Source: Owenia fusiformis
Lineage: Eukaryota
Assembly (NCBI GenBank): GCA_903813345.2
Contig: CAIIXF020000001.1
Location: 29,388,001-29,452,000, forward strand
Direction of reading: 5' to 3'
Length of the DNA stretch: 64,000 bases
Shown here: positions 103-42,956 of the stretch, in pieces
Layout: each line of letters opens with the position of its first letter
How positions within the stretch are numbered: position 1 is the first letter of the stretch
Notes under the pieces: model-generated
Told to the model about the DNA's origin: nothing
Databases searched by the model: none
Seen by the model: only the letters and a program-made list of their open reading frames with translations
Made by a program: the position numbers and the translations under genes

Positions 103-225
103 GACAATTTTCTTCCAATTCATCTGAGCCATCGAGACAGTATTCTATACCATCACATTTATAACTACCATCTATACACTCCCCATCATTACAGCGGAAT
201 TCACCAACAGCACAAACAATAGGTG
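103..225 (-). CDS. HSPG2: LDLa exon 17 ([40 protein letters not shown])
   Basis: LDLa motif; ttttag/GTAAGT; 123 nt. Confidence 0.92.
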
Positions 226-681
226 CTAAAATATTATATCTCAAATATTGTAAAAACAACCAAAACCACACATTATATTGGTGTACGTGTCAAATATTCC
301 ACGAAGTTCTTCTTGTATTATGTAATGTTATAATGAAATTTAAAATGGTTAAACTTGTTTTTGAAATATCTTCTTGAGGAGTTGTTGACAGATAACTTAG
401 TTTAAATGAGGTGTAGTATTGTGTTGGAGAAAATTCTGAATTAGACCTAAACTGACCTTCAATTGTTTGCGGTTGTATGTATGCATGTGGTATGTATGTA
501 TGTATGTGTATTGGATGTATCAGTCTAGTATCAATAAAGCATTGCTTATTAGGTTGTGGTCCATCTTGGAACATATCCCGTGACGAATTGCACTTCACTG
601 TTGTGACAGTTGTGCAATTTTTATTGAACAATTGTTCAATAAAATACCTAAATATAAAGTATAAATGAAAAGTATACTTAC

Positions 682-813
682 GACAGTCTGCTCCAGTTTC
701 GTCTGAACCGTCACTACAGTCAACAAAACGATCACATTTCTTAGCTATATCGACACACTGTTTGTTTTCACATTGAAACTCACTAGAACTACACTCTGAC
801 TCTACCGGTGTTG
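682..813 (-). CDS. HSPG2: LDLa exon 16 ([43 protein letters not shown])
   Basis: LDLa motif; ttttag/GTAAGT; 132 nt. Confidence 0.92.
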
Positions 814-1492
814 CTAAAATATCATGCAGCATAAAATATTGATTCCAGATCAATGACTATGTGATCAAAATACTAAAGTCAACATATAATTTTTTTGTCA
901 TTGATGTGACATCAGTGTTTGCAAAAAGAAAGCATAAAGGAAAAGCTTATGAATCTGACAAAGAGATTTAAACAATATATGTTTTGACAAAAAACAGGGT
1001 CAAAAGATAAAAAATAAAATAATAGAAGATGATTGTGTAATATATTTTTCTCTTTGTCAAATTAGCAGGTACGGACAATACTTTACAAACATAGAAACTT
1101 ATACTACGGAATATGTTGGTGTCAATACTGAATGGACAAAATCCGATGGTGACCACATTTTCATTTAAAGTTTGTATCAGTTCTAGTAAGCAATCCTGAC
1201 AAAATCTTTTATTGAACATTTTTGATAAAATCTAAGATAATTCAGATCCTATTTGATGCTGTCACATCATTTGAAGTTTTGCTGGCTGATTTGGAAATAT
1301 TAAATAACTAAATGGGCAACAGTCACCATCAGATAAAAGGGAAATAAACTATTGCTAAGCATTGGTTTATACTATACTAAACTTAAACTAAATAAAGCGA
1401 TCTATACTACATGTGATTGACTACAACTATGCCAAAAGAGCATGCATCCATAACAAAAATTAAAAATTTTAAAAATTCTTGGAAAAACTTAC

Positions 1493-1615
1493 GACAAGTA
1501 GCTTCAAATTCATCTGAACCATCAGAACAGTCCTCACGGCCATCACACTTTCTCCTTACATCAATGCAGTCACCATTACCACATTTGAACTCATTATCAG
1601 TGCATGCAACTGTAA
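1493..1615 (-). CDS. HSPG2: LDLa exon 15 ([40 protein letters not shown])
   Basis: LDLa motif; tag acceptor (alternative start 1609), GTAAGT donor. Confidence 0.92.
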
Positions 1616-2107
1616 CTACAATAAGGGGAGCACAGGTCTTAGAGCATGCCACCTGAGACTACTTACAGTAAATACCAAATCAAAAAATGGATGAAATGAA
1701 AGCTTCAAAACTGGCAACTGAATACAAGATTCATTTGAACATGCAGGCACTGAGATTTTCAATAACAGCTTTCCCTGAAATGCCCTTTATATAAAGACAG
1801 ATAAGGTATATCATATCATGGTTAAATGTTATAACTCATACTTGTCAAAAATTACATTAAGAAGATAGTTTATTCAAGGATTTAATAATTGTCTTGAACA
1901 GTCAATGCCCATCACTGCTCCAAGCAAATAACTATATGTGCTAAGTCTGATAACTTTGATCACTAAAACTAAGTCACTCTTTGACAAGTACAAGTGAAAC
2001 CTATTCTACTTATCATTCACCTATGTTCTTATTTAGTGTAGACAACAAATAATAACCATCACAAGCAATGAAAGGAAACATGCATGAAGAATTCAAAGTG
2101 TACTCAC

Positions 2108-2230
2108 GACAAGTAGCTTCAGATTCATCTGAACCATCGGAACAGTCCTCGCGGCTATCGCACTTTCTCCTTGCATCAATGCAGTCGCCATTGGCACATG
2201 TGAACTCAAAAGCAGTGCACTCTACTGCAG
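2108..2230 (-). CDS. HSPG2: LDLa exon 14 ([40 protein letters not shown])
   Basis: LDLa motif; tag acceptor (alternative start 2224), GTGAGT donor. Confidence 0.92.
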
Positions 2231-2660
2231 CTAAAATGTGGGAAACATTGTAAGCGCACATGCAGGGAGCTGATGAAGTGATATTCTATTGTTCCAAATA
2301 TTTGTATTGCTAATATTCACATTGTTTGTTAAAAACATGCAATATGTCAACTGCTCAAACATTTTAATATTGAATTTTTCAAAACCTCTCAGCCATTTTG
2401 CCCAAATGATAAATGCAATATTTAATGTTCATCCCATTTATGTCGAACCAGATACAATGCTGAATAATATTAGCAATATAAATATATGTATTGTTCATGT
2501 ACTTTAAGTTCTTTTTTGGAGTACAATGAAGAATGATTCTATTTTGAACTACTAATAAAGCACTGTGATAAAGACAATATTGGAAATCCAGGAAATATGT
2601 TCCAAAACAAAAATGACTAAATACAGTATCAGTATATAAGGGTTGTTTAGCATTTTAAAT

Positions 2661-2754
2661 ATACAGGGTTCATACATGGGAAATATCTGTATCTCCCTAT
2701 GGGCCACAGGGACTGAGAAAGATACACATATTTCCCAAGGGATAAACCCTGCAT
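2661..2754. repeat. Degenerate hairpin, probable relic of the same hairpin-element class
   Basis: ACAGGGTT...TGGGAAATATCTGTATCT pairs with AGATACACATATTTCCCA...AACCCTG. Confidence 0.6.
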
Positions 2755-3163
2755 CCAAATCCAAGCATACATAATAAACATATCCTATACCTCCATTCTA
2801 CCTATTATAAGGTTTTTTAAAAAATGTTAAAAAGCTTAATTCTAGTTTTTGAAAATGGAATATTTCAGATAACACTTTTGAGTAAAAATGAAAAAATTCA
2901 TGTTCAGTTTTAAAACTGAGATAAAAATCTATTTTTAAAACTGTTATGAAGTGGGACAGGATTGACAAATGAAAAATGCCTCTGCTGTAGCAGGATATAT
3001 AAATTCCACTCCCTAGATACATCATATATTCCCATGTGTTATCTACATGGGATACACATGTTCATCCAATGGTCATTTCTGTATAGTAGTCATTAAAGCC
3101 ATTGTATGTGGCTTTACCAGTGATCAGAGAAAACTGAGTCATATTGACCACATATACACTTAC

Positions 3164-3286
3164 AACATGCACTTGCTGACTCATCTGATCCATCTCTACA
3201 GTCCTCATACTGGTCACATTTCCTTCTGTTATCTATACAATCACCATCTGAGCAGCGGAATTCATAAGCAGTGCATTCACGAGGGG
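3164..3286 (-). CDS. HSPG2: LDLa exon 13 ([40 protein letters not shown])
   Basis: LDLa motif; tag/GTAAGT; 123 nt. Confidence 0.92.
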
Positions 3287-4413
3287 CTACAATATGGGAA
3301 GTTAACAGGGTATTCATAAGCGCAAACGCAAGGAGCATGAATCTATTTTGTCATATGATTCCTCGTTTTGATACTGAACAAAACCTGAATCATTAAACAT
3401 CATAGATTTCAATGTTAATCAAAATTATTCACTCCTTCCCAACCAAGTATCTTATTCATAGACAAGCAGTCTTTAAATACAGGCACAACTCATTTTGGGA
3501 TTTTGGGAGGAGACCTTTGGATTGCATAGTGTGACACTGCATTTGAAGAATTGAAGATAACTGGTTGGGACCGAGTGAACAATCGCGCAATGCATGGCCC
3601 TGGCATCAAAGTCACCCCCAAAACAGGTACTGACACAATCATAAAAAAAATTGTATAAGAATTTCAAGTCAGGTCAATTATAGTGTCATAGGTGATTGCT
3701 GTTAACCATCATTAATCTTGAGCTACCTTCATTATTTCAATTTCAGAAAACAATAATTTTGTAAATATCATCTCTAACAGCGTTTGGACCAATGGTCAAA
3801 CACATGTGTATTAAATAAAACACTGAGACGTGATGTCAAAAGTATCTAAAGATTAATATCCTGGAAGGTTTTTAACTGTGAAATGCTTTAAATAGAAAAC
3901 AATCAAGTTCTCAAGTCCACCAATGCAACTAGATAGCATGTACCCATGCATTCTTGAGTGCTCCAGCCCCTAACCACTTTGCATTTAAAAACAAAAATCA
4001 GGTTTATTAAAAAATAGGGTTTTTCAAAAAGCAGAAAACAACAATTATTATTATCATCTCACTGTCATAGTTCTCATTCTGTGATTTGTTGAACAGGGAT
4101 CATATGATACAAAAGATATCTTGCGATATTTCCCTGTAATCCTTGCTGTTCATTGGCAGAAAAGTGAGCCTCGTTTTAAAGAGCAAATATTCCATTCAAC
4201 CTGTTTTTAATATTCCTTCTCTATAATGAATCCCTCCCTTTTCCATGGTTACAGAATAAGAAACACAACAGTGAATAATAAAACAAATATTTCATTCTAT
4301 TGTCAAAAGAACAAAATATTTGAATAGTATGTTTTGGAAATAAGCAGCAACAAATACAATACTGAGGAAATTAATACTTGTTAATAGGTTGCAGAGATTC
4401 AAGATTGACTTAC

Positions 4414-4536
4414 GACATGTGGCGTCATTTTCATCTGAGCCATCACGGCAATCATCTCGTCTATCGCACTTCCTCCTGCCATCAATACACTGGCCATTGT
4501 CGCAGCGGAATTGGTCTGGGGTACAATCCCCTGATG
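4414..4536 (-). CDS. HSPG2: LDLa exon 12 ([40 protein letters not shown])
   Basis: LDLa motif; cag acceptor (alternative start 4530), GTAAGT donor. Confidence 0.92.
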
Positions 4537-4886
4537 CTGAAGCCAAAGAAAATGTTATGTTACTATTAATTTGAAATTGTAAATAAAACATAAATTATCC
4601 ACATTTTTGTTTGAAGAAGTTCTTTTATTGTATGCATCATGTAGTGTTCGTTTTTTATTTCAAGTTTTTTGTCAGGGAGTAATGTTAAAGCCGATCAACT
4701 GGGGCTCAGAAAAATTTGGTTGTGTGACAACTAGCAAAGGAATTCCTCTGTCATATTCATCTACACTATAGCATAGACTTGAAACAAATCAAATCTCTTA
4801 TTTCAACACATTCCATATGTATTGCTGAACACAATAAGTACCAGTAATAAAAATCTACATATGATAGTAAAACTAAAATGACTTAC

Positions 4887-5000
4887 GGCAATCCTTTTCA
4901 TCAGATTTGTCTTTGCAATCAGGTCGTCCATCACACTGCAGTCCGGCATCGACACACTGACCTCCAGTCTCACATCTAAACTGACCGCTTACACAGCGTG
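4887..5000 (-). CDS. HSPG2: LDLa exon 11 ([37 protein letters not shown])
   Basis: Hand translation; tag/GTAAGT; 114 nt. Confidence 0.9.
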
Positions 5001-5082
5001 CTATTTATGGAAATAACCAAGGAAAGCGTGAATGGCAAATCAATGTATAATATTATTCGAATGATGCACAGTGAGAAAGTGA

Positions 5083-5226
5083 TCCTAAATTAAGTGCAGA
5101 GTAGGTGACCTTCAAATCTGTGTCACTGTAAAAAATCAGATTCCCGAAAACATTTTTTTCTGTACCAAATTCAGAAATCTGATAATTTTATACAGGGCAC
5201 ATATCGAAGAGGCATCTAAATTTAGG
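5083..5226. repeat. Degenerate palindrome (old MITE-like)
   Basis: CCTAAATT...CTTC...TGTGTCACTGTAAAAAATCAGATT pairs imperfectly with AATCTGAT...TACAGGGCACA...GAAG...AATTTAGG. Confidence 0.5.
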
Positions 5227-6235
5227 CCAAAATCAGTACATTACTCGTAATACTTGTATTTCATGATTTTCAAATCTACCTCCATAATTATACTGCAATA
5301 AAATAGAGTTTTATCCTGCAGTGATAAATACTATGATATCTCACCATAAGATAAAGGAGGATAGTTTTGAAAGTCAGTTCAAGCATACTGTACATTATAT
5401 ATGAATATTTCAATGATGAAATAGCTGAACATGCATTCATGATTTCATTTCTACGTGAGAAGCAGTTTTAGAAGTTAAATAAGTTTCAATCATTCTGTGA
5501 ACCATTTAATTTTAAGAAATGTCCCGAGGGAAGTTATGGCAAATGAGGCACAATTAGTGTGCGTAATGATAATGATTAAAAGCCACAATGAAAACTACTT
5601 AGTAATAACAATGTTTTGAAATATTAGATCAAATAGCCTTATTATTAAATTATGACAACTCAATTAAGTGCTATATTCTATATTTACTTATATGTATTAC
5701 TTACTTTAATTAGATGTTTCAGTGGGAGAAAGCATTCAGAACAGATAAGATACACACATAAGACAAGACAATACAAGTGGCAAGGAAGAATCATGACAAA
5801 TACAAAGAGACGAAAGTAGAGATTGCATATACAGTAATATACCTACTACAATATAGGGCACAAACAATGTACATTGGAACAGCCGCATCCCTTGTGCAAA
5901 TGTGAGTTTAGGCACAAACTACTAAATCGATACCCCAAAAAGATCAATGTACCATAGAAAAAACTGATGATCATTTCCCCTTTCTAAATCATGTAAATAT
6001 TTCAATGAATGAATCCTTAAATGAATAATGTCTGTAATTTTGACATTCTGCACCTTTTCATCCAAAACATAATTTGTAATACCTTTGATATTGGAACTTT
6101 TTTCTGAAAATATAAAAGCTTGAAAAAAATCAACAATTCAGTAACTAAGGCTCTACCAAATGTCTCAAAAGTTCCAATAGTACAATGCAAGTGACAGAAT
6201 ATCTACATCTACGACTAGTACATATACAGACTTAC

Positions 6236-6358
6236 TACAACCCTCTTCGTCAGAATTCCGCTCATCATTACAATCTCGACGGCCGTCACACCGACGCCGT
6301 ATATCAATGCAGAGGCCATTGTGGCACCGAAATTGGTCCAGGCGACATATTACTGAGG
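6236..6358 (-). CDS. HSPG2: LDLa exon 10 ([40 protein letters not shown])
   Basis: Hand translation; tag acceptor (alternative cag gives start 6352), GTAAGT donor. Confidence 0.9.
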
Positions 6359-8986
6359 CTACAAGTCACATGGGACATTCTCTCACATCACACAATAACA
6401 GGCAGGGACCAGCTATGAAACCTAGCGGCAAATTTGGGGAGATGGGTTTTTGGAGAGCTGGGGCAGATTGCAAATGGACATCATATTCAGCATGGATGGT
6501 CTGGTTGTCTTTTAACTTATTTTATCAGTTTCAGGTTGGATTACTTTGGACTATTTTTCATTTATTTCTCAAAGTATTTTGATCTTATTTCTCAAAGTAT
6601 TTTGATCTTATTTCTTTACGAATGTTGATTGGTAATGAGGTAGTTCCCAGGGTTTAGAGGGAGAGCCGCTAGGTTTCCTACTTAAGTAAGCAACTAACTT
6701 CCATTGCAGTTCTCATGATTTCCAGAAACGAACGATAATATAGAATTGTTGAACAATAATCATGTAGTAGTAGTTAATTAATAGAACTTAAAGTATTCTA
6801 AGAGTATACCAAAAAGGCGAATGAACACCTAAAAGGATTCATGAGTTTGTAGTAGAGAGAGACAGCTAAGATTTGTAAGATACGAAAATTAAGAGGATAG
6901 CTATCATGAACATAGAGATTTGAAAACCTGAGGAAATCATGAGCTAGCCTACAATGGTTTGGTTAGTTCTAGTACTTACAGTTCACATGCCTCTGCAGCA
7001 TAGACACCAGATAGATTAATCACAGGACTGTATGATCTCCCCAGTTTTAAACACAACACAGCATATCACAAAGCCCCAAATAAATCCCAATATAAGCTGA
7101 TCTTTGTATTCATTTAGATTAACCAATTACATAACTAGCCATGTTTTCTTTGGGACTGTGAGCTAGACTGAGAATGAAACATCCATTTGACAATGAAAAA
7201 CCCATGTTAGGTCAGATGTGAATATGGAAAAGCAAACCAAAGCACTAAAAATGAGCCAAATGTGGCATTTGTAAGTTACATAAATAATATTGTAATTCCT
7301 ATATGAAATATGAAAGATCATTTTTTGCCTTTGTGAAAAATCATCAGGGAGATCATTACAGTATGAAAGTCAAACTTGGACAATTTATACTCAACATATT
7401 TGTTCTAATACTCAACGTTTTCTGTTTAATACTTGTTTCCAATAACTTTACATGACAATTTAAATCGTGATTGAGCTCAGGATACTGTTTATTCCTTATA
7501 TATTTTTACAAAATAGAATTTGAATGAAAAAGTACATCTCAAGATCAGGTCAATTCGCTGATGAAAAATGTATGCATACAACTACATATGAGATCATAAA
7601 TGCTGAGTGGTGAATCTAAAGGTACAAGTATATGAATGAATGAATGATGAGGGGAAATTCTACAAGCTCGACTTCCAGATAATTTAAATCATCAAGAAAT
7701 TATTATAATTACTTAATCAATTATTATTGTATGAAAAATCACATCAAGAGATCATTTATATTTCTATGTATTAGTATTTAGTACTATATAGGAACTATTA
7801 TTGGGAAACTATAAGGGTAACTTTCCCTTGAATATCACTCCACTTGTATCTTTTTGACATTATATCATTATTCTATGATACAATAATATGATTCCTCTGA
7901 GAACTCTTTTAATTTTTGTAAGATTCAATCATTCAATGTTGAAGCATCATGAGAAAAAGAATCCTATATCAAAAGGTACATTTACCAATAGTCCAGGTGG
8001 TCTACTGGAAGTATTCCACTTTGGGGATACATTGCGTAATTTGTCCAAGTGAAATGAAATTCAGGTGAACTAAATGTTGGTTTAACATAGAGTGTTGGAT
8101 AGTAAAATAACATTATCATTTATCACTTTTCCTTAGAAGGGAACTATTGGAGTGGATGTGCTGCTATGTATTAACTTATTTTATAAATTTATTGAAAACA
8201 TAATAACTAATAAAAATGAATAAATAAAATGAAAGATGCACTAAAAGTACTAACAAACAAAAATACTACTTAATTGTGAATCAGTGAATTAAATGAGAAA
8301 CATAAATCATGCTACTGAAATGTCTAAGCATTGGGAGGTCAATGGATAGAGATCCTACGTAATGAACTTGAATAAATGATATTGTTGAATGAATGAAATA
8401 ACATGCAGTAATAACTGAACAGTGTAGATTTAACTAAAAACATCAACAAAAACAACTATAGTCTTGGAGATATGAACAGTAAGGAGTGTATGGGAAAGGT
8501 TTAGAGAAAATGAATTGTTATTTTACAAGCCATCAAACTATTGAAACATGTAAGACCATATTTTCAAGCAGTTTATGAAGTCCATTTTACTAAAAATGTC
8601 TTTCCTTAGATGCGTAAAATGCAGCACATGTAACTTGCTAAAAGTTGCAAACAAGCATTCAAGTGGACGAGATTTTATAATGCAACCACTCCTTGAATGT
8701 AAGTCTACATAATGCCTCATTATTCAAGAAGAAGGAACATAATAGAGCAAATTCAACTTGATTCTACATGCTTACATTTTATTTCGTTTCAGACACTGAA
8801 CTGCTTGCAAATAATGGCATGCAGGATATGCATAGACAGGGTGCTTAGATGAAGGCAGTGAGCTAAACCTCTCATACCATGCAATAACAACAAACATGAC
8901 AAGTGCAATGAAATGTAAATGATACAGTGCATAAATTACTATACGGAAGGCATAGTCTCATTGATCCTTTAAAATTAACAACTTAC

Positions 8987-9103
8987 GACAGTCAAATTCA
9001 TCGGTTCCATCTGTACAGTCATATTGACGATTACAACGTTGAAGTACACTAATGCAATCTCCATTCTTGCACTGCCATTGGTCACTGGTACACGCTGGTT
9101 TTA
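8987..9103 (-). CDS. HSPG2: LDLa exon 9 (KPACTSDQWQCKNGDCISVLQRCNRQYDCTDGTDEFDC)
   Basis: Hand translation; ttctcag/GTAAGT; 117 nt. Confidence 0.92.
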
Positions 9104-9931
9104 CTGAGAACAAAAACATAGAAAGCTATGCTACTACAACATTCTAGGGTATACAACAGCTGCAATCTGTTGCTATGCTTCATTGCGCTGCATTCTTTGG
9201 TTGCTATGAGCATCGCACATTCACGCTGCATTTTGTACCTCTTGTTGAGGAAACATTCATGTATTTACTTATTCCCCTCAAATAAGTACATCCACCTTGT
9301 TCCTCCCCTACACTAACCACCATCAAAGTGCAAACCATGCTTCAATTATTCAACTTGATCAACTCTTGAGAGATTAAACAAATACATGAAGTCGCCTAAA
9401 AGAGTGTTACGCATATCATTACAAATGCTTTCAAATGCTTTGCTATTACCAATGTTTTGCGCAGATTTATTAACACTATCAGCTGAGTGAGCTATTTGAA
9501 ACCAAATTTTGCCCATTTACAAAATATTTGCTTTCAAATCATATCGATCAATGAAGCGCCTTTAAAAGACGTAAGATACAAAAACGTTTGAAGACGAACT
9601 TGCATATTACAACACATTTCTAATCCATACATTCTAAGGTCAATAGGTCTGTTCGTTGCAAAACATAACATTACAGTTTAGCCTAATAAATGACAATATT
9701 GCCTTAAGGTTTAAAGGGTCTTATTAAATAAATGTTCATTTTTGGATTATCAATTTAATTTATGTGTGAAAAATGGATTATCTATTTAAATGTCATCTAC
9801 TGAAAGTAAGACCCTTTAATTCCAAAGTAAGAGTCATTTGTGTAATCATATATACAAAATAGTAACATTAGATTAGGAAACAATTCTCACGAAATCATAC
9901 ACACATAATCTTAGACCAGTTGCCTACGTAC

Positions 9932-10048
9932 CACAACCGACTTCATCGCTACCATCTGCACAGTCAGCTCTGTTGTTACATTTAAGACGTGCATCAATAC
10001 ATCGACTCTCATCGGCACACTTGAACTCTCCAGCACGGCATTGAAGGG
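9932..10048 (-). CDS. HSPG2: LDLa exon 8 ([38 protein letters not shown])
   Basis: Hand translation; ctctag/GTACGT; 117 nt. Confidence 0.92.
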
Positions 10049-10290
10049 CTAGAGGTAATAAAATCTAAACTAGTGTGCAGTTTTGATACAGCATATAAAA
10101 TACCCATATCTCTCATATAACATAACTGAGGGTAAGCAATACTTATCATATTCATATACATATATGAGAGTGACATGGAATTAAGAACTTGAGGTGATCT
10201 AATGCAAGTGAATAAACAATACAGTGAACATGCATCAGGTATTTCAGTTTGCTCTCCTTCAACCTATATATGGACTTGAATACATACAAA

Positions 10291-10417
10291 ATATTCCATT
10301 CTATTAAGGTGAATACGTTTTCATCTTTTCCTCTTTATAATTGACACAGCCCTTAGGACAAGGGAAATATATGGATGGAAAGGTGAATACGTATTCACTG
10401 AAAATATGATGGAATAT
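10291..10417. repeat. Degenerate hairpin, probable hairpin-element relic
   Basis: ATATTCCAT...GTGAATACGTTTTCATCTTTTCC pairs with GGAAAGGTGAATACGTATTCAC...ATGGAATAT. Confidence 0.55.
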
Positions 10418-11170
10418 ATGGTTTATTGCATATTAAAGGAATGTTTCCCACTTACTTAGAAAATGTACAAAACAAGTGTATGCCTTTAAATCTACATTTA
10501 ATAGTTCTGAATAAAAATCTTGAAGTTTTTTGTTTATGACATTTTTCTCTGCCCATTCAAGATTCAAGTTATGTTGTCAAGTTATGAAGCTGCAGAACAT
10601 AATCTTGGTAGTATATGCCTTTCTCAACTGTGGTATACACTCTGTGGTATATATACAATAAAATAAGGCTGTAGATGGAGACTGCAGGTGACAGGGGAAT
10701 ATACAATCATCCTTTTAAATATCTTGAGAGATAGTGAGAAACATTCCAATGATATAATAAATCTGTCAATTGTGAGCTTCTAAGACACATGCTGCTATGT
10801 GTAATCAATATACAAAAGCATGGCTCATCATTATTAAAATAATGTAAGACAAGGCATTACCATGCAAAATGTCACAACCTGCCATTTGATACAGACACCA
10901 ACTGCCAAGCACCAACCAATTATAGCTGAACATCAACCACTAAACGCTGGACATTCAACACAAAAAGTTGGAGACCACAACAATATGTCACCACTTGTGG
11001 TGGTGACATAAACACTGACATCATTTTAGCATGACAAGGTATTGCGAATATCAAAATTAACTACAATTTTCTGTTGTCTAATAATTGCATTTAGCTTTGA
11101 AAACAGAAAATCATTTCATTCTGATTGCAGTGCTTTATTAGTGAGAATATAGAATAACATAGTCACTTAC

Positions 11171-11287
11171 GACAGTCTTCTTCATCTGAACCATCAGGGC
11201 AATCTGATCTTTGGTCACAGCGACGTCGTTTATCGATACAGTCACCACTGGCACATTGGAACTCACTATCCCGACAACCCACAGCAG
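11171..11287 (-). CDS. HSPG2: LDLa exon 7 ([38 protein letters not shown])
   Basis: Hand translation; tttttctag/GTAAGT; 117 nt. Confidence 0.92.
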
Positions 11288-11783
11288 CTAGAAAAATATC
11301 ATAATTTTATTTTTATGATTCAAGCATTTTAGATCAATCGTATTTTATTCAAGCAATGGGTATTCCACTCAAACTGCTAAGCTCAACCCTTCATTACATC
11401 CACCTGAATTCTTCATCAGAGATCTACTTTCAATCTTGATCTTACATCATGAAAACAGTTCCATAAGATTAATAACATTCAGGATTTTCAACTTGAAAGA
11501 AAACAAGTCTTTGGAACCATATTAACATAAAAATATCAAAATCTATCAAGACATTTCAAGTATTCAATAATGTAATTTTTCCAATAAGGTTAGCCTATAA
11601 TGCCATTGGTGCTAGGCAGCAGTACCATACTTGTATATTTTTCAATAATGTCATAAATAAATGAATAAATAAATATGAAAAAAAACATAAATATTCATGA
11701 AATGTCATATGACAGTATTACACCCATTCAAATTAATGATCTAACGCATCATATCCTTTATCCCAAATCAAAGTATAACTTAC

Positions 11784-11900
11784 GACAGCCAAATTCATCT
11801 GAGCCATCTCTACAGTCAACCCTACTGTCACATTTCCTATTTTCATCAATGCACTCCCCAGTGATACATTGGAACTGTCCCCGTCCACATGGCTTGGAGG
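11784..11900 (-). CDS. HSPG2: LDLa exon 6 ([38 protein letters not shown])
   Basis: Hand translation; ttttttccag/GTAAGT; 117 nt. Confidence 0.92.
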
Positions 11901-14281
11901 CTGGAAAAAATAAGATAAAATCATACATACATGAATATATAAACTACTGTATAAATAAGATGAGAGATTATTTAGAGGAAATAGATATTTATTAGAATAA
12001 TACTTTTTGTGATAAGAAAGTGACTTTCTTACACTATTTCAAAGTGTGTACTATTTATTGAAACATAAAATATATTCAACTCAGATGAACACTGCACATA
12101 TGGCATGTATAAATTAATTAAACAACTATAATATTTATTAATGTATTATGAAAACTATGATGAATGTGGTATGAAAAATCCTGAAAGATAATGTATATTG
12201 GTGATTAATAAAAAGCATTGCGCAGTATTAGAAAATCGACAAAGTGTACATGGTGAAAATGATGTGTTGCTGGTGAATATGAATTGTGAGGAGATCATGG
12301 TGTGCCTGAAATAAATAGAACTATATCAGATGTCAATATTATTCAATCCCTATAATATGATATCTGCTGGTTAATCAAAGCTGCCTCCAGAGAATCTACT
12401 TCAGTTATTTACATGAAAGATTAATTAATACAGGGTGCCCAGTAAGTAATGATGCAAATGCCCTTAACATCATGGACACCTTGTATAAGGATGCTCTTGC
12501 TTGTTAACTGGGATAAAGCTAATACATATACAGATCATAGCTGCGAATAATCTTTGATTTTCAGTTTCCTTCATGAATTCTTCAGGAATACGAAAATCAG
12601 AAATTATGCAGCCCTTCATAAAGTTGGACTGTCTTAAAAGCCTTGGACACTGAGATAAGTAAAGCAATGTTATTTTATTACAGAACAGGAGAAAACTTAT
12701 AAATACATAAGGGATTGAATAATGATCACATCTTCAGAAATGGAAATCAAATTTCTCATAATATGCAACACACATCAATAAATGAGAATTTAACAGCGCA
12801 AAATAGAACAGATAAAGCATAGCAGCGTGCAACATTTACGAATCAAACAGAACAATATACCATTAACATTGAATAACATGGACAGAAACTGGAAACAATA
12901 GATTAATATAACAAATTATTTTGAGTCTAACCTTAAGCGTAGCTCCTGTAAAATATACACTTAAATCTTGAAATCAAAGAAGTTAATGTCAGCATGTCAA
13001 AAAATAGCTTTCTGAATTTGAATAAGCATCAAGTGTGTTTCATCCGCTTGATGAAAAGACACGTCAACAACCCAATTAAAATATTTCTTTGGACTGGGAA
13101 ATAAACCATGATAGTTGATTTAGAACTTATGTGCATTTAAGAACTCAGGGACTTCTTTATTTGCTTTGTTTCTTATATAATGAGATCCAAAGCATGCAAA
13201 GTTGTCTATTAATTAAAGATATATACCAAGGAGCGAAATATGACAAGGAGCGGGTTTTCTAATCATTATTCAGTGTGTCAGTGTGTGAGTACAGTAGTAA
13301 TCTGCAAGGCAAAGTGCTGTTAGAAAACTGCTTTGGCGTCAGCCCCATCCCAAATTCACACACATAATTCATTCACTGGTCCAAAAATTAGACCAGAGCA
13401 ATTCAAATATAGAAAGGCACTATTAAAACTGAATAAAATCACCCCGAAGTCATTCTGTGACATTCAATTTTATAAATTTAGTTGTGCAATGTATATGCCT
13501 ATCAATGTGTGGACAACCCTAGCAGTGTTGTAACACGAGTTTAAACAGATAATAGGGAGGTATAGCTTGCATTTAATCAAAATGAAAACGAGTAATGTAT
13601 TGAGTGTGCATGTAATTGCATACAGTTGTATTGCTATTCAGCTTCAGTGCTCTGCTTAGAACGGGAGTATGTACAGAAATGATTTTCTTAGTGTTTCCTG
13701 AATATGCACAGTTATGTGAGTTTCTTTGAGTACATTGAAATCATAAAAGTCAAAAATACATACATTCTGCATGTACAAGATTTGTTCAAAGAAATGTATA
13801 TGGACTTAATAAATCTATATACATTATACTGTATCTAATTTTCAAGCTTGTTTAAGATATTTGGAGATAAAACATGCATGTCTACTGTGCACCAAAACCA
13901 AAATGCCTGCATAGTATTCAATAAATATGCGTATAATCATTCCTGTAGACTTCAATGTGTAATTTCAAATTTCCTGTTCAAAACATAAAACTCTGAAGCT
14001 GAGCGGGTATTGGAATGGTACAACAGTATGCACGCGCAACACATTCCTAAACAGACTCATGTACATGCTTAAATTTTTCTGTACACGTTTACATTGTGAA
14101 AGATAGCGCAAGCTTAACCTCTCTAATAAATAAACACATTGTCTAATCCCTCATTGGTAAGTCTAAAACACAGTGACACCCCTTTACCATAATATGAACA
14201 TGTCCATTTAAGCAAAATGGACAAGTCCATGCATGTAGCAAGAGGTGTCTGAGGGGTGCCAGGACATGACACGGCACTTAC

Positions 14282-14392
14282 GACAATCTAACTCATCAGT
14301 GTTATCGGGACAATCAGATTTGCCATCACAACGATCCTCCAATGGGATACACAGGCCACCTTCACATCGATACTGATTTTCTGCACACGGAA
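14282..14392 (-). CDS. HSPG2: LDLa exon 5 (PCAENQYRCEGGLCIPLEDRCDGKSDCPDNTDELDC)
   Basis: LDLa motif; cag/GTAAGT; 111 nt. Confidence 0.92.
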
Positions 14393-16857
14393 CTGAAACT
14401 ACAACCCAACTAATCAGCATCGAGCTTCCATCAGAGCATGGTAAAAACAAAAGATCAAAAGTATCTTAATAAAGAAATTGAAATTGATTTGTGTGCTCTT
14501 ATATCACTTTTAAAAAACAATACATGCATCTAGAAGATGCTATTTCCCTAAAAGTGATCCAGAAATATATTTTTGAAGAAATGGATGGGAAAACTGGTCT
14601 CTGATGAATGCAGTTCTGTTAAAATCAATAAATTGTGTCCTCAAATGTTCCTTTCCATATCTTAGTTGTCTTTTTCATCTGAAAAACTCATGAATTATAA
14701 CATTTCTCTATAACATCAAATATTAATTTGTTCTTGAACATCACAAAAAGAACAACTGCAATTTTCACTTTCAAAATTCAATTTTGAATTAAATATAACA
14801 CATCATTATAGTATCAATGCATGTAATACACCATGCAGTTTTGCATCTGGACCATTTTTAAGCTACCCAGAAAACATGCATACAGCTTTCCTCGGGTAAG
14901 TAGAGCTTAGGTCCCAATAGGCATTTTCACTCATATGCCATGTGGAATATTCCCCCAAATGACCAGCAAGTTATCTGTTCACCAATTCAACAGTATTTTA
15001 TATTTTTCAAGTAATTCTGAAAATGCAAAACTTGATGAATGCATATCATGAATGGGCCTACAGAAATATATATTTGTCAAATAATCTCAAAATACTTAAA
15101 TTCTTGGTATTTATACAGATGCTATACATTATATGATTCAACATCTTAAATTATTCAAAACAAATATTTTGGGATATTCATGGTGGTGCTGCCACTTGAA
15201 AAATGCAAATGGGTGAACAGATAAATGTGAAAGAAAACACAATGTATGTAAGTGTAATAAAGCCATTCATTACTTAGTGGTTATTTCCCAACCTTGTTTC
15301 TTAATATTAGTTGCTGAAAAATCTGAATATTGCTATGACATGGATTAGTGTTCATTTATAATGACATTTCACGAGGAATTGTTAATATTTGTATTGCCAA
15401 TCGACTGCCAAATCAACCATGAGCGAGACCTTTAAGTATTAATATTGTATTACTTCAATGATTTACACCAGCTTGCAATTACAGAATTTGATTGTGCAAT
15501 TTCACATAAGAGACTGGCCAGTGGACTTGGTAAACAAACCTATTCCTGGCCTGGATATAGAAGAATATTAAAGTTTGGGCTTATAGCGGGTAAGAAATAA
15601 AATCTTGAGTCTAACAGCTCTTTGGTGATTTCTACAACTGATTTATGGAACTATAAAATGAGAGATAGTGAATAAGATTTCTTAAGATTCTCTGTGAGAC
15701 TTTGCCGATGGTTTTGGCCAAGAATTTATTTCCCTCGAAATGTCATTATTGATGTACTATAATTGCAGTTGTATCTTATTCAATCTTATATGGGGTAAGC
15801 AATTTCCAGAATTTATGTTAAATAATAAATAAACTAAGCTTATGAACTTTTGTTTTTCTTTATATAATGAAGCATTTAGGAATTTCAGATTCTATTTCAC
15901 TTTAGTTAGTACCAATGAGATTGAATCCTATACATAATGTTATACATTATATATACAACCACTGGATGATAGTATAAAACAAAAAACGATTTTATTAATA
16001 AGAAAAAATACATTCATAATTATACAGCATTATGTTCAGTATTGCGACCTAAAAGACCAAATGCATGCCAAGTCAGGAAAGTTTAATCTGGTCATCTTCA
16101 AGTTACTACAGCCAACCGCAGCAAGTTTGGATTTACCTAGCATTATATAGCTTAGACCCAGATGATAAATATTCAATGCATTTCTCGTGCAGTTAAACCT
16201 CCATAACATAACTGTTCTTCTCATAAAAACCACGACTGTTGGATTTTGCAGGTTTAACTGTGGAAAGAATTGCAAAAAAATATACGAGTTCTATTTTGTC
16301 TTATCACATGAATTAAATAGTTGGAATGAAGTTATTTGAATTCTTATTTCATACATTATAAATTACATGCACTCTAATCTTCAAAGAAGGTGCAGATCTA
16401 ACATTTGAAAGCACAAGTGGAAACAACAAAGATGCTACAATACTCTGTCCTTTATAACGTCTGATACAATCAAGGATCAGAGCCTTTTACAAAATTCAAC
16501 TTCATTCTAAATTACTTAATCCACTCTACTCTAACAGACCCCTTGTTAACACAGGAGGTTAAGTGACTGTTTTCTCAAATGTCAATAGTAAGAATAACAT
16601 TTTTTGAACAAATACAAAAATAAGTAAATAAAAAAATCTCTTGATATTTTTGGTGCTCAGACATCGATCAATCTTATTCCGATTAATGGGGACAAAAAGA
16701 GAAAGACAGTTAAGCTGACCTATTGCAAATGCTTATCAAAAGATAAATCAGAAAGTGAGAATAAAAGACAATAATATTTTCACAAAGGAACATAATAAGT
16801 TTGTTTTTCTAAGGGGTCTGCAACATCTGGGCCTAAAGCAGTGGAGCACAGACTTAC

Positions 16858-16965
16858 GACACTGAAGTTCGTCTGTTTTATCTGGACAATCTTGGCGACC
16901 ATCGCAGCGCCTTGCTTCGGGAATGCACTCCCCACTTACGCAGCGGAATTCGCCATATTGGCAAA
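16858..16965 (-). CDS. HSPG2: LDLa exon 4 (CQYGEFRCVSGECIPEARRCDGRQDCPDKTDELQC)
   Basis: LDLa motif; weak aag acceptor, GTAAGT donor; 108 nt. Confidence 0.88.
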
Positions 16966-17610
16966 CTTCATAAGAACAAATAAACAATAACAGTTATCCT
17001 TTGGGCTGAAGCCACACAGTAGAATCACCACACACGCTAAAATCAATAGAAATCTAACTGGGGGTGGTTTCATTCATGATCTGAACTAATCGAGGAAGAT
17101 AATAGAAACATACATAATAGTCACAAAATGAAAGATATAATAAGATGAACTAAACAATAATAAGATGAGGTATAAAAGATACATACACTAATCAAACATT
17201 GCAAAGCCTTTAACAACAAATTTTCCAAAGAATAGAATAGATATGTATGAACTTAAATATGAAAGCTCTCCAATACAAACTTGTAGGTAGCAGAGTTAGA
17301 TATTCTTACTACTAAAGTGCTATATCGGCACACTTGGCTTGGCAAGAAAATGCATGTCAAGGGACTGACACCAAAAATTTGTACGATCCTCATGTCTGGA
17401 GTCATTTCAAAGATCAATAAAATGGAATTGAAATATTATATTAGGATTAAAGTATGTCGATTTATATACCTGAGACCATAAATTGAGTTTCATTTTCCAT
17501 TCTGTCTAAATTGCTTATTAACAAAAAATTATATCATCCAAATGTAAGGATCCTACAAGTTGATTGGTTCCTGGGTAAGCTTATAGGTGACACTAGAAAA
17601 GGTGACTTAC

Positions 17611-17724
17611 GACATCCAAGTTCATCAGTGTTATCAGGGCAGTCAGCTCTGGAGTCGCAACGTTGTCTTTCATCAATGCATGTACCATCAGTGCATCTAA
17701 ATTGGCCACTTCGGCATTCTTCAA
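17611..17724 (-). CDS. HSPG2: LDLa exon 3 (EECRSGQFRCTDGTCIDERQRCDSRADCPDNTDELGC)
   Basis: LDLa motif; cag/GTAAGT; 114 nt. Confidence 0.92.
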
Positions 17725-17853
17725 CTGAAACATACATTTCAGGTATCATACTATTGCAAATAACAGGGCAAACAAATAAATGACCTGACAAATGAACAAA
17801 TATAATAAATGACCAATCAAATGACTAAACAGAAGGCATGTTGTCACACTTAC

Positions 17854-17967
17854 CACATCTTCGTTCATCAGATCCATCAACACAATCAAAAGCCCTGTTG
17901 CACCTGAGTCTAGCATCAATACAGCTACCATCATCACAGCGGAATTCTTCAGCCCTACAGCTTGTCA
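17854..17967 (-). CDS. HSPG2: LDLa exon 2 (TSCRAEEFRCDDGSCIDARLRCNRAFDCVDGSDERRC)
   Basis: LDLa motif; cag/GTAAGT; 114 nt. Confidence 0.92.
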
Positions 17968-20900
17968 CTGAAATAGGATAATAAAAAGATGTATTAAAAT
18001 AGTCCACTGTGTAAATTCATTTAAATTCATACCAATTATAGTACAGAGCAGGTCTCATAAAGTGTTCTCAGCCCTTTCACAAGTGTAACACAAAGGTGGT
18101 GAAAACCCCATCATTACAGGCAGAATACATGTAATTTACCATGAAAACATGAATGAAATCTGTGCATTTGTGAAAATATGTGCAAATTTGCATCACAGGT
18201 GGTTTTTGCCATTCACCACCTTCAAACGGGTTGGATCTACATGGGGAAGATGCCACAGGAAGAGACTTCTTTCAGAAGATAAGAGACAAAAGCATATGGT
18301 TTCCCAATCACCTTCACCAGATAAAGGGAAGACTCATAAAGGGAAGACCTCTCTAAAGAGATAATCTCACATTAATTATAATTTCTATATAGCATTCACT
18401 CTCTTCAACAAAATGACATATGGATATATATTATTCAAGCATTGTACACTGGGCCCAAATGGTTAATCTCAAATTGGTTTAAGAATCAGTGCAGAACAGA
18501 TTGTCAGAGGAGTTGCTTGGTGATCTCTCTGACAATCCTCAAGGCTTTAAGTCTCTGTTTTATAACAATGAAACCAGTAAATATGTAAGCCAGGAACAGT
18601 AGTAATGACTTTATTTGTGCCAATAATAAGCAATCAACAGGACGTTTTTGAAAGAAGGAACATGTACATGTATACGATAGCATCTTTGTGTAAATCAAAC
18701 ATCAGATTTTATAGATATTCCACATTGAACATGCGAGAGTTTATTTCAAGATGTAAATGAAATCATTTAATAGTCAACCCACCCACCCAAAGGTTTCCAA
18801 ATAAATCGAAACAGAAAGAACTTTCATTCTGACCATGGAACTTCAATCAATTCTGTTCAATGTCCAGACTTAATGGTACAGCAAATGACTGGATGTCTAA
18901 ATACTTCTACAGATACTACTTGGTGCTATCAGAAAAACTCACAGTAGAACCCCCCCCCCCCTTTTCAACATTAGGGCACCCCAGTCAACAATCACTATGA
19001 TGCAGCATCATGGACAACTCTCCTATTATTAGATCTTTACATGGCTTCCTTAAACCTGAATAGCATTACTGTATACTACTGAACAAGTGTACCAGTTCTG
19101 ATAAGTTTACCAATTTGTTCAATTTGCAGTACCACTCATTCACCTTACTGACCTAAACAGTGTAAAGGACTCAAAGAATCTCTTTGAACATAAATTACCA
19201 AATTCTCTCCCACACATTTATTATAATTACACAGAATGGTTCACTGAAATTATGTTATGAGGTTGTTTTAAACCTTTAAAGCTATTAGTGTTGCCAAAAT
19301 GCTCAGTAATTGTAATAAACTAAACCTGGATCACCCTTTCCTTCCAATGCTTAGTGTACTTAATAAAATTCTTCACAAATATTATCGTACCCTTGAGCTT
19401 AAAATTAGAAGTTGTCATTTTCAAGAATTTGGAAAAACTGAGTTGAGGTAAAACAGACAGAATTGGTTATTCAAACATGGTTGAGGTGAATGGGAGCATA
19501 GCACAGGGCTAATTTCTGCCTTTTGAAAATATCTGGAAGAAGAGTAAAACAGTCCGCAATAAAAGACTGACTAATATATATTTGCCGGCTGGTAGCCGTG
19601 TATCCCGGAGGGATGATACAATGAGTGGGGATGCTGAAGTGTTTATCACCTAGCAACATGTAAACATTGTGCTCATCAACACCTTTCTCAGTCTGGGTTG
19701 CACTGACATGCAGATAGTCTAACCCCGGGACAATACTGACAGACCCTGGCAGGATATTCTCATTGAAGTTAATTACTATTTTAAGGAAATGCCAGAATTG
19801 TCTGTGTTTAATATCACAAAGGGTACTGAAGTATGTGCATATTCAGATAAAATTCAAGGAAACCATATGGACCAATAAAAAAGAACCGAGTCAAGGTGAA
19901 CCTACTCAGGAAGACAATATGTATTTAACTTCATGATTGTTATTATTTCATGTAACCAGATCTCAATTTCATGTAGTTTCTTGCAGGGGACGCCAGACTG
20001 GCATGTAATGTTCAGTTATACAAGGAATATCTCTTGCTGAGCTTTTATTGACTCATAATTCGCTCATAGAATGCTTAATAAAAGTATTTCTGATCTTTTC
20101 TCCAATGTTGATAATGAACATAAGCAGATGAAGCTTATTTGAATTTTTTAATTTAAAATCAGGTTTAAATTATTATAACACTATTTATAATTATAAATAA
20201 TTATTCCACAATTCCAATATTATCGCACTTCGGGGAAAGAGAAAAAGTGGGAGGTTGCATAAGAGATTAACTCAAGATTAACTTTGAAATATAAATCAAA
20301 AAATTATCTCCAGTTTGATACCTACCTCTAACTGTATATGAATATTGTAAAATTATTATTTAGCTCGAGAAAATAAAATAACAACAAAATTATTATTTTA
20401 TGCTTCTCAAGAACAATTTAAACATAGTGTTATTTAACTGTGATACAAGTATACACATTTTAGAAACAGCCTACTAGTATATCTTGGAATGTTCAAAATG
20501 ATAAGACACGGCATTCTTAAATGTGCCATATGTCCAAGGACCACCATGCTTTATATATGTCCTCTTAACAATTCTCATTCTACATATACTCTAAGGCAAT
20601 ATCATATTTTTATATTTTGCTGTAGAATGTTTCCTCTATATCTCTATATATTATTCCCAATGCCTCCAATTCTGTATTTAAACATGTGACCTCATGAAGT
20701 TTCGCCAATATTTTACAGAGGGGTGACATTTAGGAAATACTGCCTCTGCATGCTGACAGGGATAGCTTTACACATAAGGGTGATGACAGGGTTCACAGTA
20801 TCTCCTCAACAGTTATCTCCCCTCCTGAGGATGATGGAAGAAATATTGGTGCTGGTTAGAATAACTAGGTTGACTTCTTGGTATTTGTTTATTTAAGATT

Positions 20901-21438
20901 TTGATATATATTTTTTACAGCAAGTTCATTTTGTCATAACAATCATCTGCTTAATCATGTTTTGTATTTGTTGCTCTTTTCAAATGTTGCCCATCATCGG
21001 GTTCTTAATGAGACAAGACATTTACTGATCCATATCTGATTTACTGGGAGATAAAATATCAGTACAAGATGATCAGCGCTAATTGTATGGCAACCAGTAA
21101 AATAAACAAAATCATTCTTCATGAATAGTTTTTGAAAGTAATCTAATAATACCGAATATTTCTTGCAACCACACAGGCACTGTTTATGTGTAGACTACTA
21201 ATAAAACTAAATATACCACCTATAAACACTTCTAATGATTACACCATTCAAACAACTAAGTAACATAAAAACTAAAAGAATAGCTTTTAGAACATTTAGA
21301 AAGCATTTCACTGTGTTATCTAGATAAGCCCCATTACATTTAACATTAACGATGACCTACTACCAATAAAACACTAAAAAATCAAGAAATACCAGCATAA
21401 TGTCTATATATAAAAATCTTAGTACATGTAATATGTAC

Positions 21439-22340
21439 GTGTATCTCATACTTGAGTGGGTTTGGGGTAGATATCACCCGGGAATATATATCGTATCTGA
21501 GGAGCGGGCAGGATATATTGTATATGTCCCGCTCCAGGCCAAATGCGGGCAGATATAATATATCCATCCCGCTCCCGGGAATTTTTCAAAAGTTTAAAAA
21601 AGTTTAAATATCAAAAGTTTTAATTTTTTAATTTCAAAATTTAATTTTTTTAAGTTTAAATGTTACAATTTCATTGTATTGAACAAAAAGAATATTACGA
21701 AAATGTTAAATATAAATATCTTGTCATTTGAAAAAGGTGGAAAGGGTTATATCTACCCTAAACCCACTCAAGTATGAGATACACCAGTTATGCACAGTCG
21801 GTTTGGATACATGGAATATCCCTTGGGATATGCAATACATATAGGTTATTTACTGGGAGGGATTGAATATGGGTTTTATTCCGAGGGACAATATGATATT
21901 GACCGTAGGGTAATGTGATATTGACCGAGGGAGCGCAGCGACCGAGTGTCAATATCATATTTCCCAAGGTCAATATCATATTGTCCCTCGGAATAAAACC
22001 CATATTCAATCCCTCCCAGTAAATAACCTATTTATTCCATAATACATTCCTCCTTAAAATGTTACATTTGGATAATGCTTTCAAGGTTAAAAATAACCGG
22101 GAAAACCAAAAATAGGTTAATACGTTCCAATACGATTTTTGTCCCGGGGACAATACGATTTTTCCATGTAATACGCTCCAATACGATTTTTTTCCCGGGG
22201 ACAATACGATTTTTTCATGTAATACGATTCAATACGATTTTTATTCCTTCATATTTCCCTGGGAAAACAGTAGTATTATGGAATAAATCTTGTATATCCC
22301 TCGGGATATTCCCTGTATCCAAAACCTCCCAGTGCATAAC
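21439..22340. mobile_element. Crypton-like hairpin element (outer), interrupted by a second element
   Basis: 41-bp inverted repeat 21439-21479 / 21744-21784, then hairpin arms 21787-21837 / 22288-22340; shares GCGGGCAGATATA and AGTCGGTT...TATCCCTTGG motifs with 54289-54830. Confidence 0.7.
21841..22287. mobile_element. Crypton-like hairpin element (inner)
   Basis: Near-perfect palindrome 21841-22031, then a body bracketed by TTTATTCCATAATAC (22031-22045) and GTATTATGGAATAAA (22273-22287), containing ~51-bp tandem units. Confidence 0.72.
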
Positions 22341-23710
22341 CCTTATGTATATAAGTGACCGACATTATATACTCTAAAATAAAGATAAATAGTTTCAGAC
22401 CACTATAACCCCATATTCATATAACATACAGTGTATAAATCTCTTAAACTCCATCTCTTAACCCCAGTTTCATTTCCAACAGTAACTATTCCTCACAATT
22501 TATATTTTAGATATACCCTTAATCTCTTTCTTGAAAAATAAAGTTTTAAAAATAACCATGTCTCAATATTCTTCAAGAATAAGAAAAACTGAACATTTTA
22601 GGGAAAACATATTTTCTCAAATCATTCCTCAAATTCTATGCCAAAATACCCAACTGACCCATGTTAGCTCATGTTCCTACGAAAGCCATTTCCATGAAAT
22701 GGTATAAGAAATACTTGATGGCAGATGGCAGTCAATTTAAATGTGGGGGCGACTTTATAAGAAATCAAATATAGAAGACATTTTGAAATCTTACCACCAG
22801 TATTTGAGTTTTTGCCTGGATAGATTAATGAACAATTCATGGAAAAAACTGAAGTTGACACAATTATGAACAAATGATAATGTGACTTAATGTGACATAG
22901 AATGTCTGAGTTGAAACATATTCAGGTAAATAATGTCATGTATCAACATATGTAGACCATGGCATTCAATATGCTTCATACAATGTTTGATATCACCTAG
23001 ACCCAATGCTTCAACATACCGCCAGCATTGTTGTGAAAGAAAAGGAGAGATCCCATGGCTATAATAGGATGCAGGTTTATATTTCCCCATACTTAATTCT
23101 GGAATAGCATATTTTTGACAATACAACCAACAACAATAGCAAAAGATGAAAGTAAAATACAAAATCCGTTAATATGACTTGGACCACCACGTAGAAAGAC
23201 CACTTGCTGCTCACATTTCATTATGAAATAATTGAGGATTCAAGTGAAGCGCCAACAAGCAGTCAAATGAATCTATCTGATCCCTTTAATCTCTATAATC
23301 CCCATTAAGGAGATATTACAAAACATTTTTGTTCAATTCATTTGTGCATTAGAGTTTTTATATGTTGCTATCAGTGGCGAGCATAATCTTGTATAAGATG
23401 ATGAAAATGGTGATATTATTGCAGAATAATACATTCAAAAATCTGAATCTTATCATGATGGTTAAGAAAATATATACTCTTATAATCAATTGTTAATACA
23501 ACCTATGAATAAAGAGAGGAGTGATAGGAATATTTGAACTTCATCTGGTTCATTAAGCATGCAACTCATGAGATGGAAAGAGAGTCATATTTTTTGGAAA
23601 GCTACCCTGAGCAATAAATTGAGGAGGAACCACATTTCCTAGCAATTGTATTGTTCTTTTAATAATAATAAATTCATTGGTCTTTTCTTATTAACTAAAT
23701 AATTATAAAG

Positions 23711-24072
23711 TATTCGAACATGACTGTATTCACGCCTTCTATAAACTGTAAACAAAGTCAACATTTCCCCCGGGTATATTCGCGAAGAGTACCCCTGGTA
23801 ATACATGTAATGTGTGACATCATAACGGCGGGTTGTAGTTATGGTGGACCAAAATGAATATTCAAAACATTTTGGTGAGTTTTCATGTTCGAATTGTAAT
23901 ATAGACCCCAGAGCAGGGGTAATATTGTCGAATATGCCCCTTAGGGCAGGGCTAGGCACAAAAGCCTTCGAACCCCTCTCGCCCTTCGGTCATTCTGGTT
24001 ACAGAAGACGTTTGTGCCTAGCCCTGCGGGTGTATTCGACAATATTACTTCTGCTCTTCAGTCTGTATTTCT
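23711..24072. mobile_element. Crypton-like hairpin element
   Basis: Inverted repeat ATTCGAACATGA (23712) / TCATGTTCGAAT (23883), then an imperfect hairpin about 23899-24068; flanked by direct repeat TAATTATAAAG. Confidence 0.68.
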
Positions 24073-24461
24073 TAATTATAAAGGTTTCAGTGAAGAACTT
24101 TGTGCAGATGCAGATTTTTTGCAGAATGTCACACAACACATTGTATTTTATTCATGCTCTTTTGGGAACATTTTACTGACCAAAAACCCTACCTAAATAC
24201 TCCTCATACTTCTGAATGAATTTCAATATTACCATATAGGGTCCAATGGGCAGCTTTTGAATGCGGACAAACTACCAATGATTAATAAAGAGTCTAACTC
24301 ACTGAATATTTGTCAATACATTTTTGAAAAGTTAAGAAAAAATTAACATAATAAATCAATGTTGATACTTAATAGTAAAAATTAATGCATCATAAGTAAA
24401 TTCATAATCATGACAGTGAATGGTAATTTCTACTTTAAATGACATAAGAACATTTACTTAC

Positions 24462-24611
24462 CAGGACACGTTAGTACAGTTTCATCAGAGCCATCAGAGC
24501 AGTCATTCCTGCCATTACAGAGTAGTCTCCTATCAATACACTGTCCATTGTTACATCGGAACTGGATTGGACTACACGTCAGGGGTGTGGATTGGGTTGT
24601 CACTGGAGGTG
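24462..24611 (-). CDS. HSPG2: LDLa exon 1 with P/T-rich linker ([49 protein letters not shown])
   Basis: Six Cys and DCSDGSDE; cag/GTAAGT; 150 nt; phase 1-1. Confidence 0.92.
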
Positions 24612-42903: not shown

Positions 42904-42956
42904 CTGAAAATGAAAAGCAAAATGGATCAAACCTTGTAAAGAGGAGATCAGCCTTA

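Follow-up and report, generated by a model that had tools for sequence, protein, structure and literature searches.

The window analysed here, a stretch of 64,000 nucleotides of the 500-Mb genome of Owenia fusiformis (contig CAIIXF020000001.1:29388001-29452000), carries part of a gene that, judged by its sequence, is perlecan (HSPG2/trol/unc-52). When a further 160 kb beyond the left end of the window was included in the analysis, domain II of this gene was found to contain 77 exons that each encode a single LDLa module. This array is real and larger than first reported; it is a variant of a known pattern, and a new mechanism of splicing seems not to be involved. We consider it probable that the array forms a mostly included spacer rod in which a minority of exons is skipped, as cassettes or in blocks, and that it is not a Dscam-like generator of diversity.

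In domain II, the initial LDLa position has been multiplied to 77 one-module exons by tandem duplication of exon and flanking intron, probably through unequal crossing-over, with phase 1-1 keeping each gain or loss frame-neutral; one copy is dead. It is probable that the majority of transcripts include most of the exons, which would form a spacer of ~3,300 residues, stiffened by disulfides and calcium, between a glycosaminoglycan/SEA/jelly-roll head and domains III-V. A minority of exons, single or in blocks, would serve as cassettes that tune the spacer length, by analogy with the annotated perlecans of molluscs and arthropods.

An array of 77 single-LDLa exons in a perlecan gene

In six-frame motif scans, 17 LDLa repeats were found at 103..24611 of the window, all on the minus strand and none on the plus strand. 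Each of them occupies its own exon, contains six cysteines and a D/N-x-S/T-D-E type motif, is preceded by a phase-1 AG and is followed by a phase-1 GT donor just past the sixth cysteine. The preliminary description had reported these one-domain, phase 1-1 exons, and their existence and coordinates were confirmed. Its figure of at least 17 is true as a minimum; however, it is a large undercount, and the exons of the window are the first 17 of the 77, which extend over 50 kb and reach 25.5 kb past the left end of the window (exon 77 lies at ~29362516). Six cysteines are present in 76 of the 77 repeats and the calcium-cage pattern in 75. The 76 exons that have both six cysteines and a phase-1 GT donor were counted as intact and encode ~3,300 residues; the remaining one is dead.

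The earlier assignment to perlecan domain II was borne out by the surroundings of the array, since SEA exons lie upstream of it and Ig, three LDLa, laminin, Ig and LamG exons lie downstream. On one strand, the domain order is Ser-Gly-rich, SEA, jelly-roll, LDLa array, Ig, three LDLa, laminin, Ig and LamG. Domain I is represented by Ser-Gly glycosaminoglycan sites and SEA, and domain II by the 77 LDLa exons, Ig exons and three further LDLa, two of which sit in one exon. In open reading frame translations, domains III-V follow in order on the same strand as laminin B/EGF, an Ig run and LamG/EGF. The chain of downstream exons was colinear with four named perlecans and gave 59 junction calls, 42 of which were agreed by at least two of them. 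The best named matches of a domain III exon were annotated perlecans, the N-terminal exons matched mollusc and nemertean perlecans in tblastn, which suggests a lophotrochozoan gene, and the Ser-Gly-rich exon, the two SEA exons and the 513-nt exon upstream of the array all chain in phase.

A spacer role of the array is suggested by the composition of its repeats. An aromatic residue two positions before the fourth cysteine, at the ligand-binding position that helps LDLR-family repeats to bind ligand lysines, was present in 12 of the 77 repeats and in 1 of the 17 in the window; such a low number favours a spacer over receptor-like binding. Since binding of lipid, Wnt and Hedgehog is assigned to vertebrate domain II in reviews (PMC9010944), domain II may also have a role in ligand-binding capacity.

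Growth of the array by tandem duplication

The 17 exons of the window share on average 59% DNA identity and are old. Further along the array, exons 46-53 are made up of four copies of a pair of exons, and similarities of 94-100% are found among many of exons 62-73, exons 67 and 69 being 100% identical. Because the introns flanking the duplicated exons are also homologous (many are 75-98% alike, compared with 54 ± 4% for unrelated introns), it is clear that the array grew by tandem duplication of an exon together with its flanking intron. Unequal crossing-over was probably the route. Pooled pairwise dN/dS within the duplicated groups was 0.34, 0.19, 0.07, 0.18 and 0.22 (the pairs are non-independent), and the duplicated groups tested are under purifying selection.

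Exon 61 (minus strand, ~29369270-29369392) is evidently a dead copy: its donor has changed from GT to TT, the fifth cysteine is lost, and its dN/dS against the neighbouring exons is 0.87. Both birth and death of frame-neutral exons can be read from the array. The acceptor of exon 61 is intact, and read-through from it would hit a stop just past the repeat.

The near-identity of exons 62-73, complete for exons 67 and 69, and the presence of a dead exon could also be expected if part of the array were an assembly artefact or non-coding debris. This is scarcely credible, considering that the exons of the window are as divergent as stated above, that the late copies differ in both exons and introns, that dN/dS is low and that there is no N within the array region.

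Exons 46, 48, 50 and 52 (minus strand, ~4100-7200 of the flanking piece L002) carry a Thr/Pro/Val-rich tandem linker of variable length before the LDLa module. This linker is likely to form an O-glycosylated, mucin-like spacer.

Optional LDLa repeats in related perlecans

Homologues were retrieved with a domain III exon and a scallop perlecan region as queries. Of the 340 proteins of at least 1500 aa that were compared, 262 contained LDLa as well as a match to domain III; in this sample, which is isoform-rich and biased toward expanded arrays, domain III was preceded by a median of 26 LDLa, isoforms included. The run of LDLa before the Ig exons was longer at this locus than in any of the 262 perlecan-like proteins, the next longest being 54 in a Penaeus model. 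LDLa expansion is thus ordinary in protostomes, with the 76 intact repeats found here forming the extreme of the sample. In four decapod entries, the conserved triplet is followed by a second series of 8-10 LDLa, which was not seen in this locus.

Mollusc isoforms were compared within 13 RefSeq sets, each from a single assembly and together covering nine genera; of the 112 members, 94 were used, and entries that were partial, duplicate or from another assembly were dropped. When sequence variants and two Littorina models with a truncated N terminus are disregarded, optional LDLa repeats were found in all 13 sets (1-8 of 17-38). The same ordinal repeats varied in different sets, namely 3 and 4 in two scallops and 8 and 12 in two oyster assemblies. 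In a spider isoform set, single repeats and one pair were dropped. The pre-Ig run ranged from 30 to 46 repeats across 14 Penaeus isoforms of one assembly, and the number of LDLa from 34 to 55 across 15 Portunus isoforms. Because the shorter runs of these relatives contain a few optional exons, some skipping of LDLa exons, limited in extent, is likely in Owenia fusiformis. That any LDLa exon can be skipped in frame, as had been proposed, holds by phase and agrees with the skipping annotated in relatives. The further proposal that the locus yields many isoforms by cassette or block skipping could be retained only in part: relatives do skip repeats in frame, but they point to a minority of optional exons and not to free combination of the whole array.

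Extensive combinatorial or regulated block skipping, with most exons optional and with tissue perlecans differing greatly in domain II length and composition, is permitted by phase symmetry. Isoforms of the crustaceans Penaeus and Portunus lose LDLa blocks of up to ~16-20 repeats, and in Ostrea the annotation includes three cassettes in each of their 8 possible combinations. For Drosophila trol, 25 predicted variants of 2853-4489 aa are given in the available text of PMC10328508, and one skipped exon, whose domain is unstated there, is mentioned in that of PMC13423992. Nevertheless, such extensive skipping is improbable, since only the few mollusc repeats counted above vary, no signal of weak splice sites was found (see below), and with many late exons near-identical, combinations would add little sequence diversity. 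A more ambitious proposal is equally doubtful: that the longest domain II is accompanied by tissue- or stage-specific skipping of large blocks, which tunes basement-membrane spacing or morphogen-binding capacity, by copy-number variation between individuals and by an undescribed lophotrochozoan lectin-like head domain.

Splice sites and RNA evidence

As controls, 42 splice sites located downstream in the perlecan gene were picked by protein alignment regardless of site strength. For the array, the choice among candidate AGs was made by position, and a slight bias toward good sites is possible. The mean number of pyrimidines in the 20 nt before the acceptor was 12.9 for the exons of the window (p = 0.26 against controls), 12.5 for 58 further array exons (p = 0.48) and 12.3 for the controls, which had a median of 12 and a range of 8-18. 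The acceptors at 5000 and 6358, described earlier as having poor pyrimidine tracts, have 13 and 10 pyrimidines (13 at the alternative AG at 6352), which is within the control range. AAG acceptors were found in 1 of 17 window exons, 1 of 58 further array exons and 2 of 42 controls; the one noted previously, at 16965, is indeed the sole phase-1 AG in that open frame. Donors starting with GTAAG were present in 68 of 76 array exons compared with 13 of 42 controls (p about 1e-10). The argument that weak acceptors point to alternative splicing is therefore not supported: the array acceptors equal the controls, and the array donors come nearer to consensus than the control donors.

A tandem array of duplicated, related exons is what this locus shares with the hypervariable clusters of Dscam1. 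However, a Dscam-like system of mutual exclusion, in which each transcript takes up only one or a few of the LDLa exons, is very unlikely: the shortest array intron is 111 nt, which leaves no room for an argument from steric exclusion, the frame is kept when neighbouring exons are included together, and homologous proteins carry the repeats in series. In an exact-word test on exons 2-45, which degenerate pairing could escape, no shared flank word exceeded shuffles, and no docking or selector sequences and no steric or frame-based exclusion of the Dscam type were found. Exact 11-mers revealed no docking sites, and in the three introns considered as candidates for docking, no 40-nt site paired with more than 2 of 44 exons.

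An RNA search listed no match among the indexed runs, which carries no weight in either direction. RNA evidence was taken from three raw runs (6-12% of the reads of each run) and one contig run, aligned to positions 1-18000 of the window, which contain exons 2-17. Coverage was 0-5 reads per LDLa exon, and no exon-exon joint was found among the 15 listed of 58 joints. Nearly all aligned reads fell on a multi-copy intronic element at 10849-11012, which filled the splice-joint table. In run X11, 10 of 13 exon bins and 3 of 14 intron bins had some depth in the first-mate-plus direction, the one expected of RNA from the minus strand (Fisher p 0.007, post hoc); the corresponding values were 4/13 and 6/14 for X9 and 5/13 and 6/14 for X10. 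Depth was exon-centred in one run of three but not in the other two, and transcription of the array is only weakly indicated. The bins of exon 4, which has the AAG acceptor, and of exon 17 had zero depth in all three runs, which is within chance at such depth. Pieces of run X7 shown over exons 9 and 10 continue unspliced into the introns. Short multi-copy elements such as that at 10849-11012 also lie at ~4250-4300 and ~2730-2760 and occur in many other transcripts.

Several of these observations weigh against a mostly included spacer with a minority of skipped exons. No skip junction was detected in this species, at an underpowered 0-5 reads per exon, and the array splice sites bear no sign of weakness compared with the 42 same-gene controls. 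Three Anopheles isoforms (PA/PB/PC) all keep 20 LDLa. The isoforms of relatives are gene models, and their full-length combinations are not proven; RefSeq isoform models are predictions from local junction support. Because the mollusc isoforms were clustered at 90%, those of similar length are favoured, and skips of large blocks may be counted too low.

The splice sites, the purifying selection in the duplicated groups tested and the Anopheles isoforms would all agree with a fully constitutive array, that is, with inclusion of all 76 intact exons and a lineage-specific increase in length only. This is nonetheless rather unlikely, considering the optional repeats in all 13 mollusc isoform sets and in the spider and crustacean sets. 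Moreover, the consensus intronic donors may only offset a non-consensus exon end that is fixed by the cysteine codon.

Exons of the array within the window

The LDLa exons of the window, all on the minus strand, are 108-150 nt long. Each length is divisible by 3, a consequence of phase 1-1 and thus no independent fact. Nine of the 17 carry a second in-frame AG 6-12 nt inside the exon, so the exact exon starts are uncertain. The donors are gtaagt in 15 exons, gtacgt in one and gtgagt in one. No other homologous exon was detected between the LDLa exons in the window part of the array.

Exon 1 (24462..24611, 150 nt) has a Pro/Thr linker, an alternative AG at 24602 and a match to Pfam Ldl_recept_a at E 1.5e-14; the others were identified by motif scan. 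Exons 2 (17854..17967), 3 (17611..17724) and 11 (4887..5000) are 114 nt long, and exon 4 (16858..16965), with the AAG acceptor, is 108 nt long. A length of 117 nt was found for exons 5 (14282..14398, or 111 nt from the AG at 14392), 6 (11784..11900), 7 (11171..11287), 8 (9932..10048, with the gtacgt donor) and 9 (8987..9103). Exons 10 (6236..6358, with the alternative AG at 6352), 12 (4414..4536), 13 (3164..3286), 14 (2108..2230), 15 (1493..1615) and 17 (103..225) are 123 nt long, exons 14 and 15 being 88% identical, and exon 16 (682..813) is 132 nt long. Exons 18-77 and the rest of perlecan lie beyond the left end of the window. In the intron between exons 1 and 2, nested inverted repeats at 21480-21780 and 21840-22030, recognised by eye, are probably transposon remnants.

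Exons upstream of the array

The domain I exon with acidic Ser-Gly motifs of the glycosaminoglycan attachment type lies at 51890..52085 (minus strand; boundaries from sequence) and gave 36-47% in tblastn to mollusc perlecans. It ends at phase 1 with an apparent GC donor at 51890, which is the sole choice that fits both the homologues and the phase of the next exon. The SEA domain is split between two minus-strand exons: the first half (44691..44856, phase 1-2) matched Pfam SEA above the cut-off (E 2.9e-6), and the second half (42752..42903, phase 2-1) was identified by tblastn to mollusc and nemertean perlecans. The second half retains a G-S-L-I-V motif of the autoproteolysis type, resembling the autocleavage motif of other SEA domains; among basal perlecans, a Trichoplax SEA with a G-SVV autocleavage motif is described in the available text of PMC4398486. 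The intron that splits the SEA domain contains a 1.5-kb element (42956-44459) with 81-nt terminal inverted repeats that are 90% complementary. It resembles a non-autonomous DNA transposon and seems to have a target duplication of the TAA type.

A 513-nt, phase 1-1 exon of 171 codons (26526..27038, minus strand), which lies between SEA and the array, is predicted to encode a jelly-roll beta-sandwich domain, as indicated by its best structural matches. No Pfam match was obtained for this exon; of 9 aligned domain members, 2 gave a match to DUF4082, the best E being 0.011. The AlphaFold model is all-beta with a pLDDT of 90, and fold matches with Z of 8.5-11.3 were to phage and carbohydrate-binding sandwiches. 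The best was 9jwb_Z (Z 11.3, rmsd 3.5, 147 aligned), and others were a mycobacteriophage tail tip (Z 10.2), the Cwp84 entry, which includes a lectin-like domain (Z 9.6), and entries for carbohydrate esterases. At E 0.001, Foldseek found nothing in PDB. A glycan-binding role may be guessed from the fold.

A search of proteins of 327-2000 aa with the jelly-roll exon alone gave no homologue, and the domain was found instead inside longer perlecans. In a scan of 60 proteins whose retrieval query itself contained the domain, it was present in 17 of 17 named molluscs, in the nemertean and in 3 unnamed entries, and absent from all 37 arthropod and priapulid proteins and from the Ridgeia and Spirometra models. 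This genome contains 32 matches to the domain, several of which, by eye, adjoin kringle-like, CUB-like or lectin-like open reading frames. The lack of a name for this domain is a small but real annotation gap in lophotrochozoan perlecans.

Comparison with known perlecans

The domain order of this gene is that of mollusc, nemertean and annelid perlecans (XP_021372607.1, XP_074655735.1 and Ridgeia NP493_5g02050), and in molluscs LDLa repeats are optional among annotated isoforms, as proposed here. However, those perlecans have 6-42 LDLa before the conserved triplet (14-34 in named molluscs, 42 in Ridgeia and 6 in Tubulanus), compared with 76 at this locus; in many molluscs the run is interrupted (in the scallop sequence inspected, an Ig-like insert does so), and the Ridgeia model is without the N-terminal domains. 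Arthropod perlecans (Drosophila Trol and the Penaeus, Portunus, spider and tick RefSeq models) likewise have an expanded domain II, with up to 54 LDLa in one run, and both single and block skipping among annotated isoforms; the jelly-roll domain was found in none of the 37 arthropod and priapulid proteins scanned, and the arrays are shorter.

The well-studied cassettes of C. elegans unc-52 are Ig exons of domain IV, in contrast to the LDLa array considered here. Regulated alternative splicing of this perlecan is described in the available text of PMC6266596, in which vertebrate domain II is given as four LDL-receptor motifs and one Ig. Vertebrate HSPG2 shares the five-domain plan and a domain II composed of LDLa and Ig; however, its four LDL motifs compare with 79 intact LDLa here. 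Literature on LDLa expansion, LDLa exon skipping or an extra domain in invertebrate perlecans was not found, most subscription papers being outside the coverage of the search.

Perlecan is usually drawn with four LDLa, whereas domain II varies widely in protostomes, and its optional splicing is annotated in many genomes. The locus of Owenia fusiformis is the extreme case, in which duplications of early and of recent date stand next to a dead exon, and it is a good natural test of the effect of domain II length and of how exons of a matrix protein arise and are lost.

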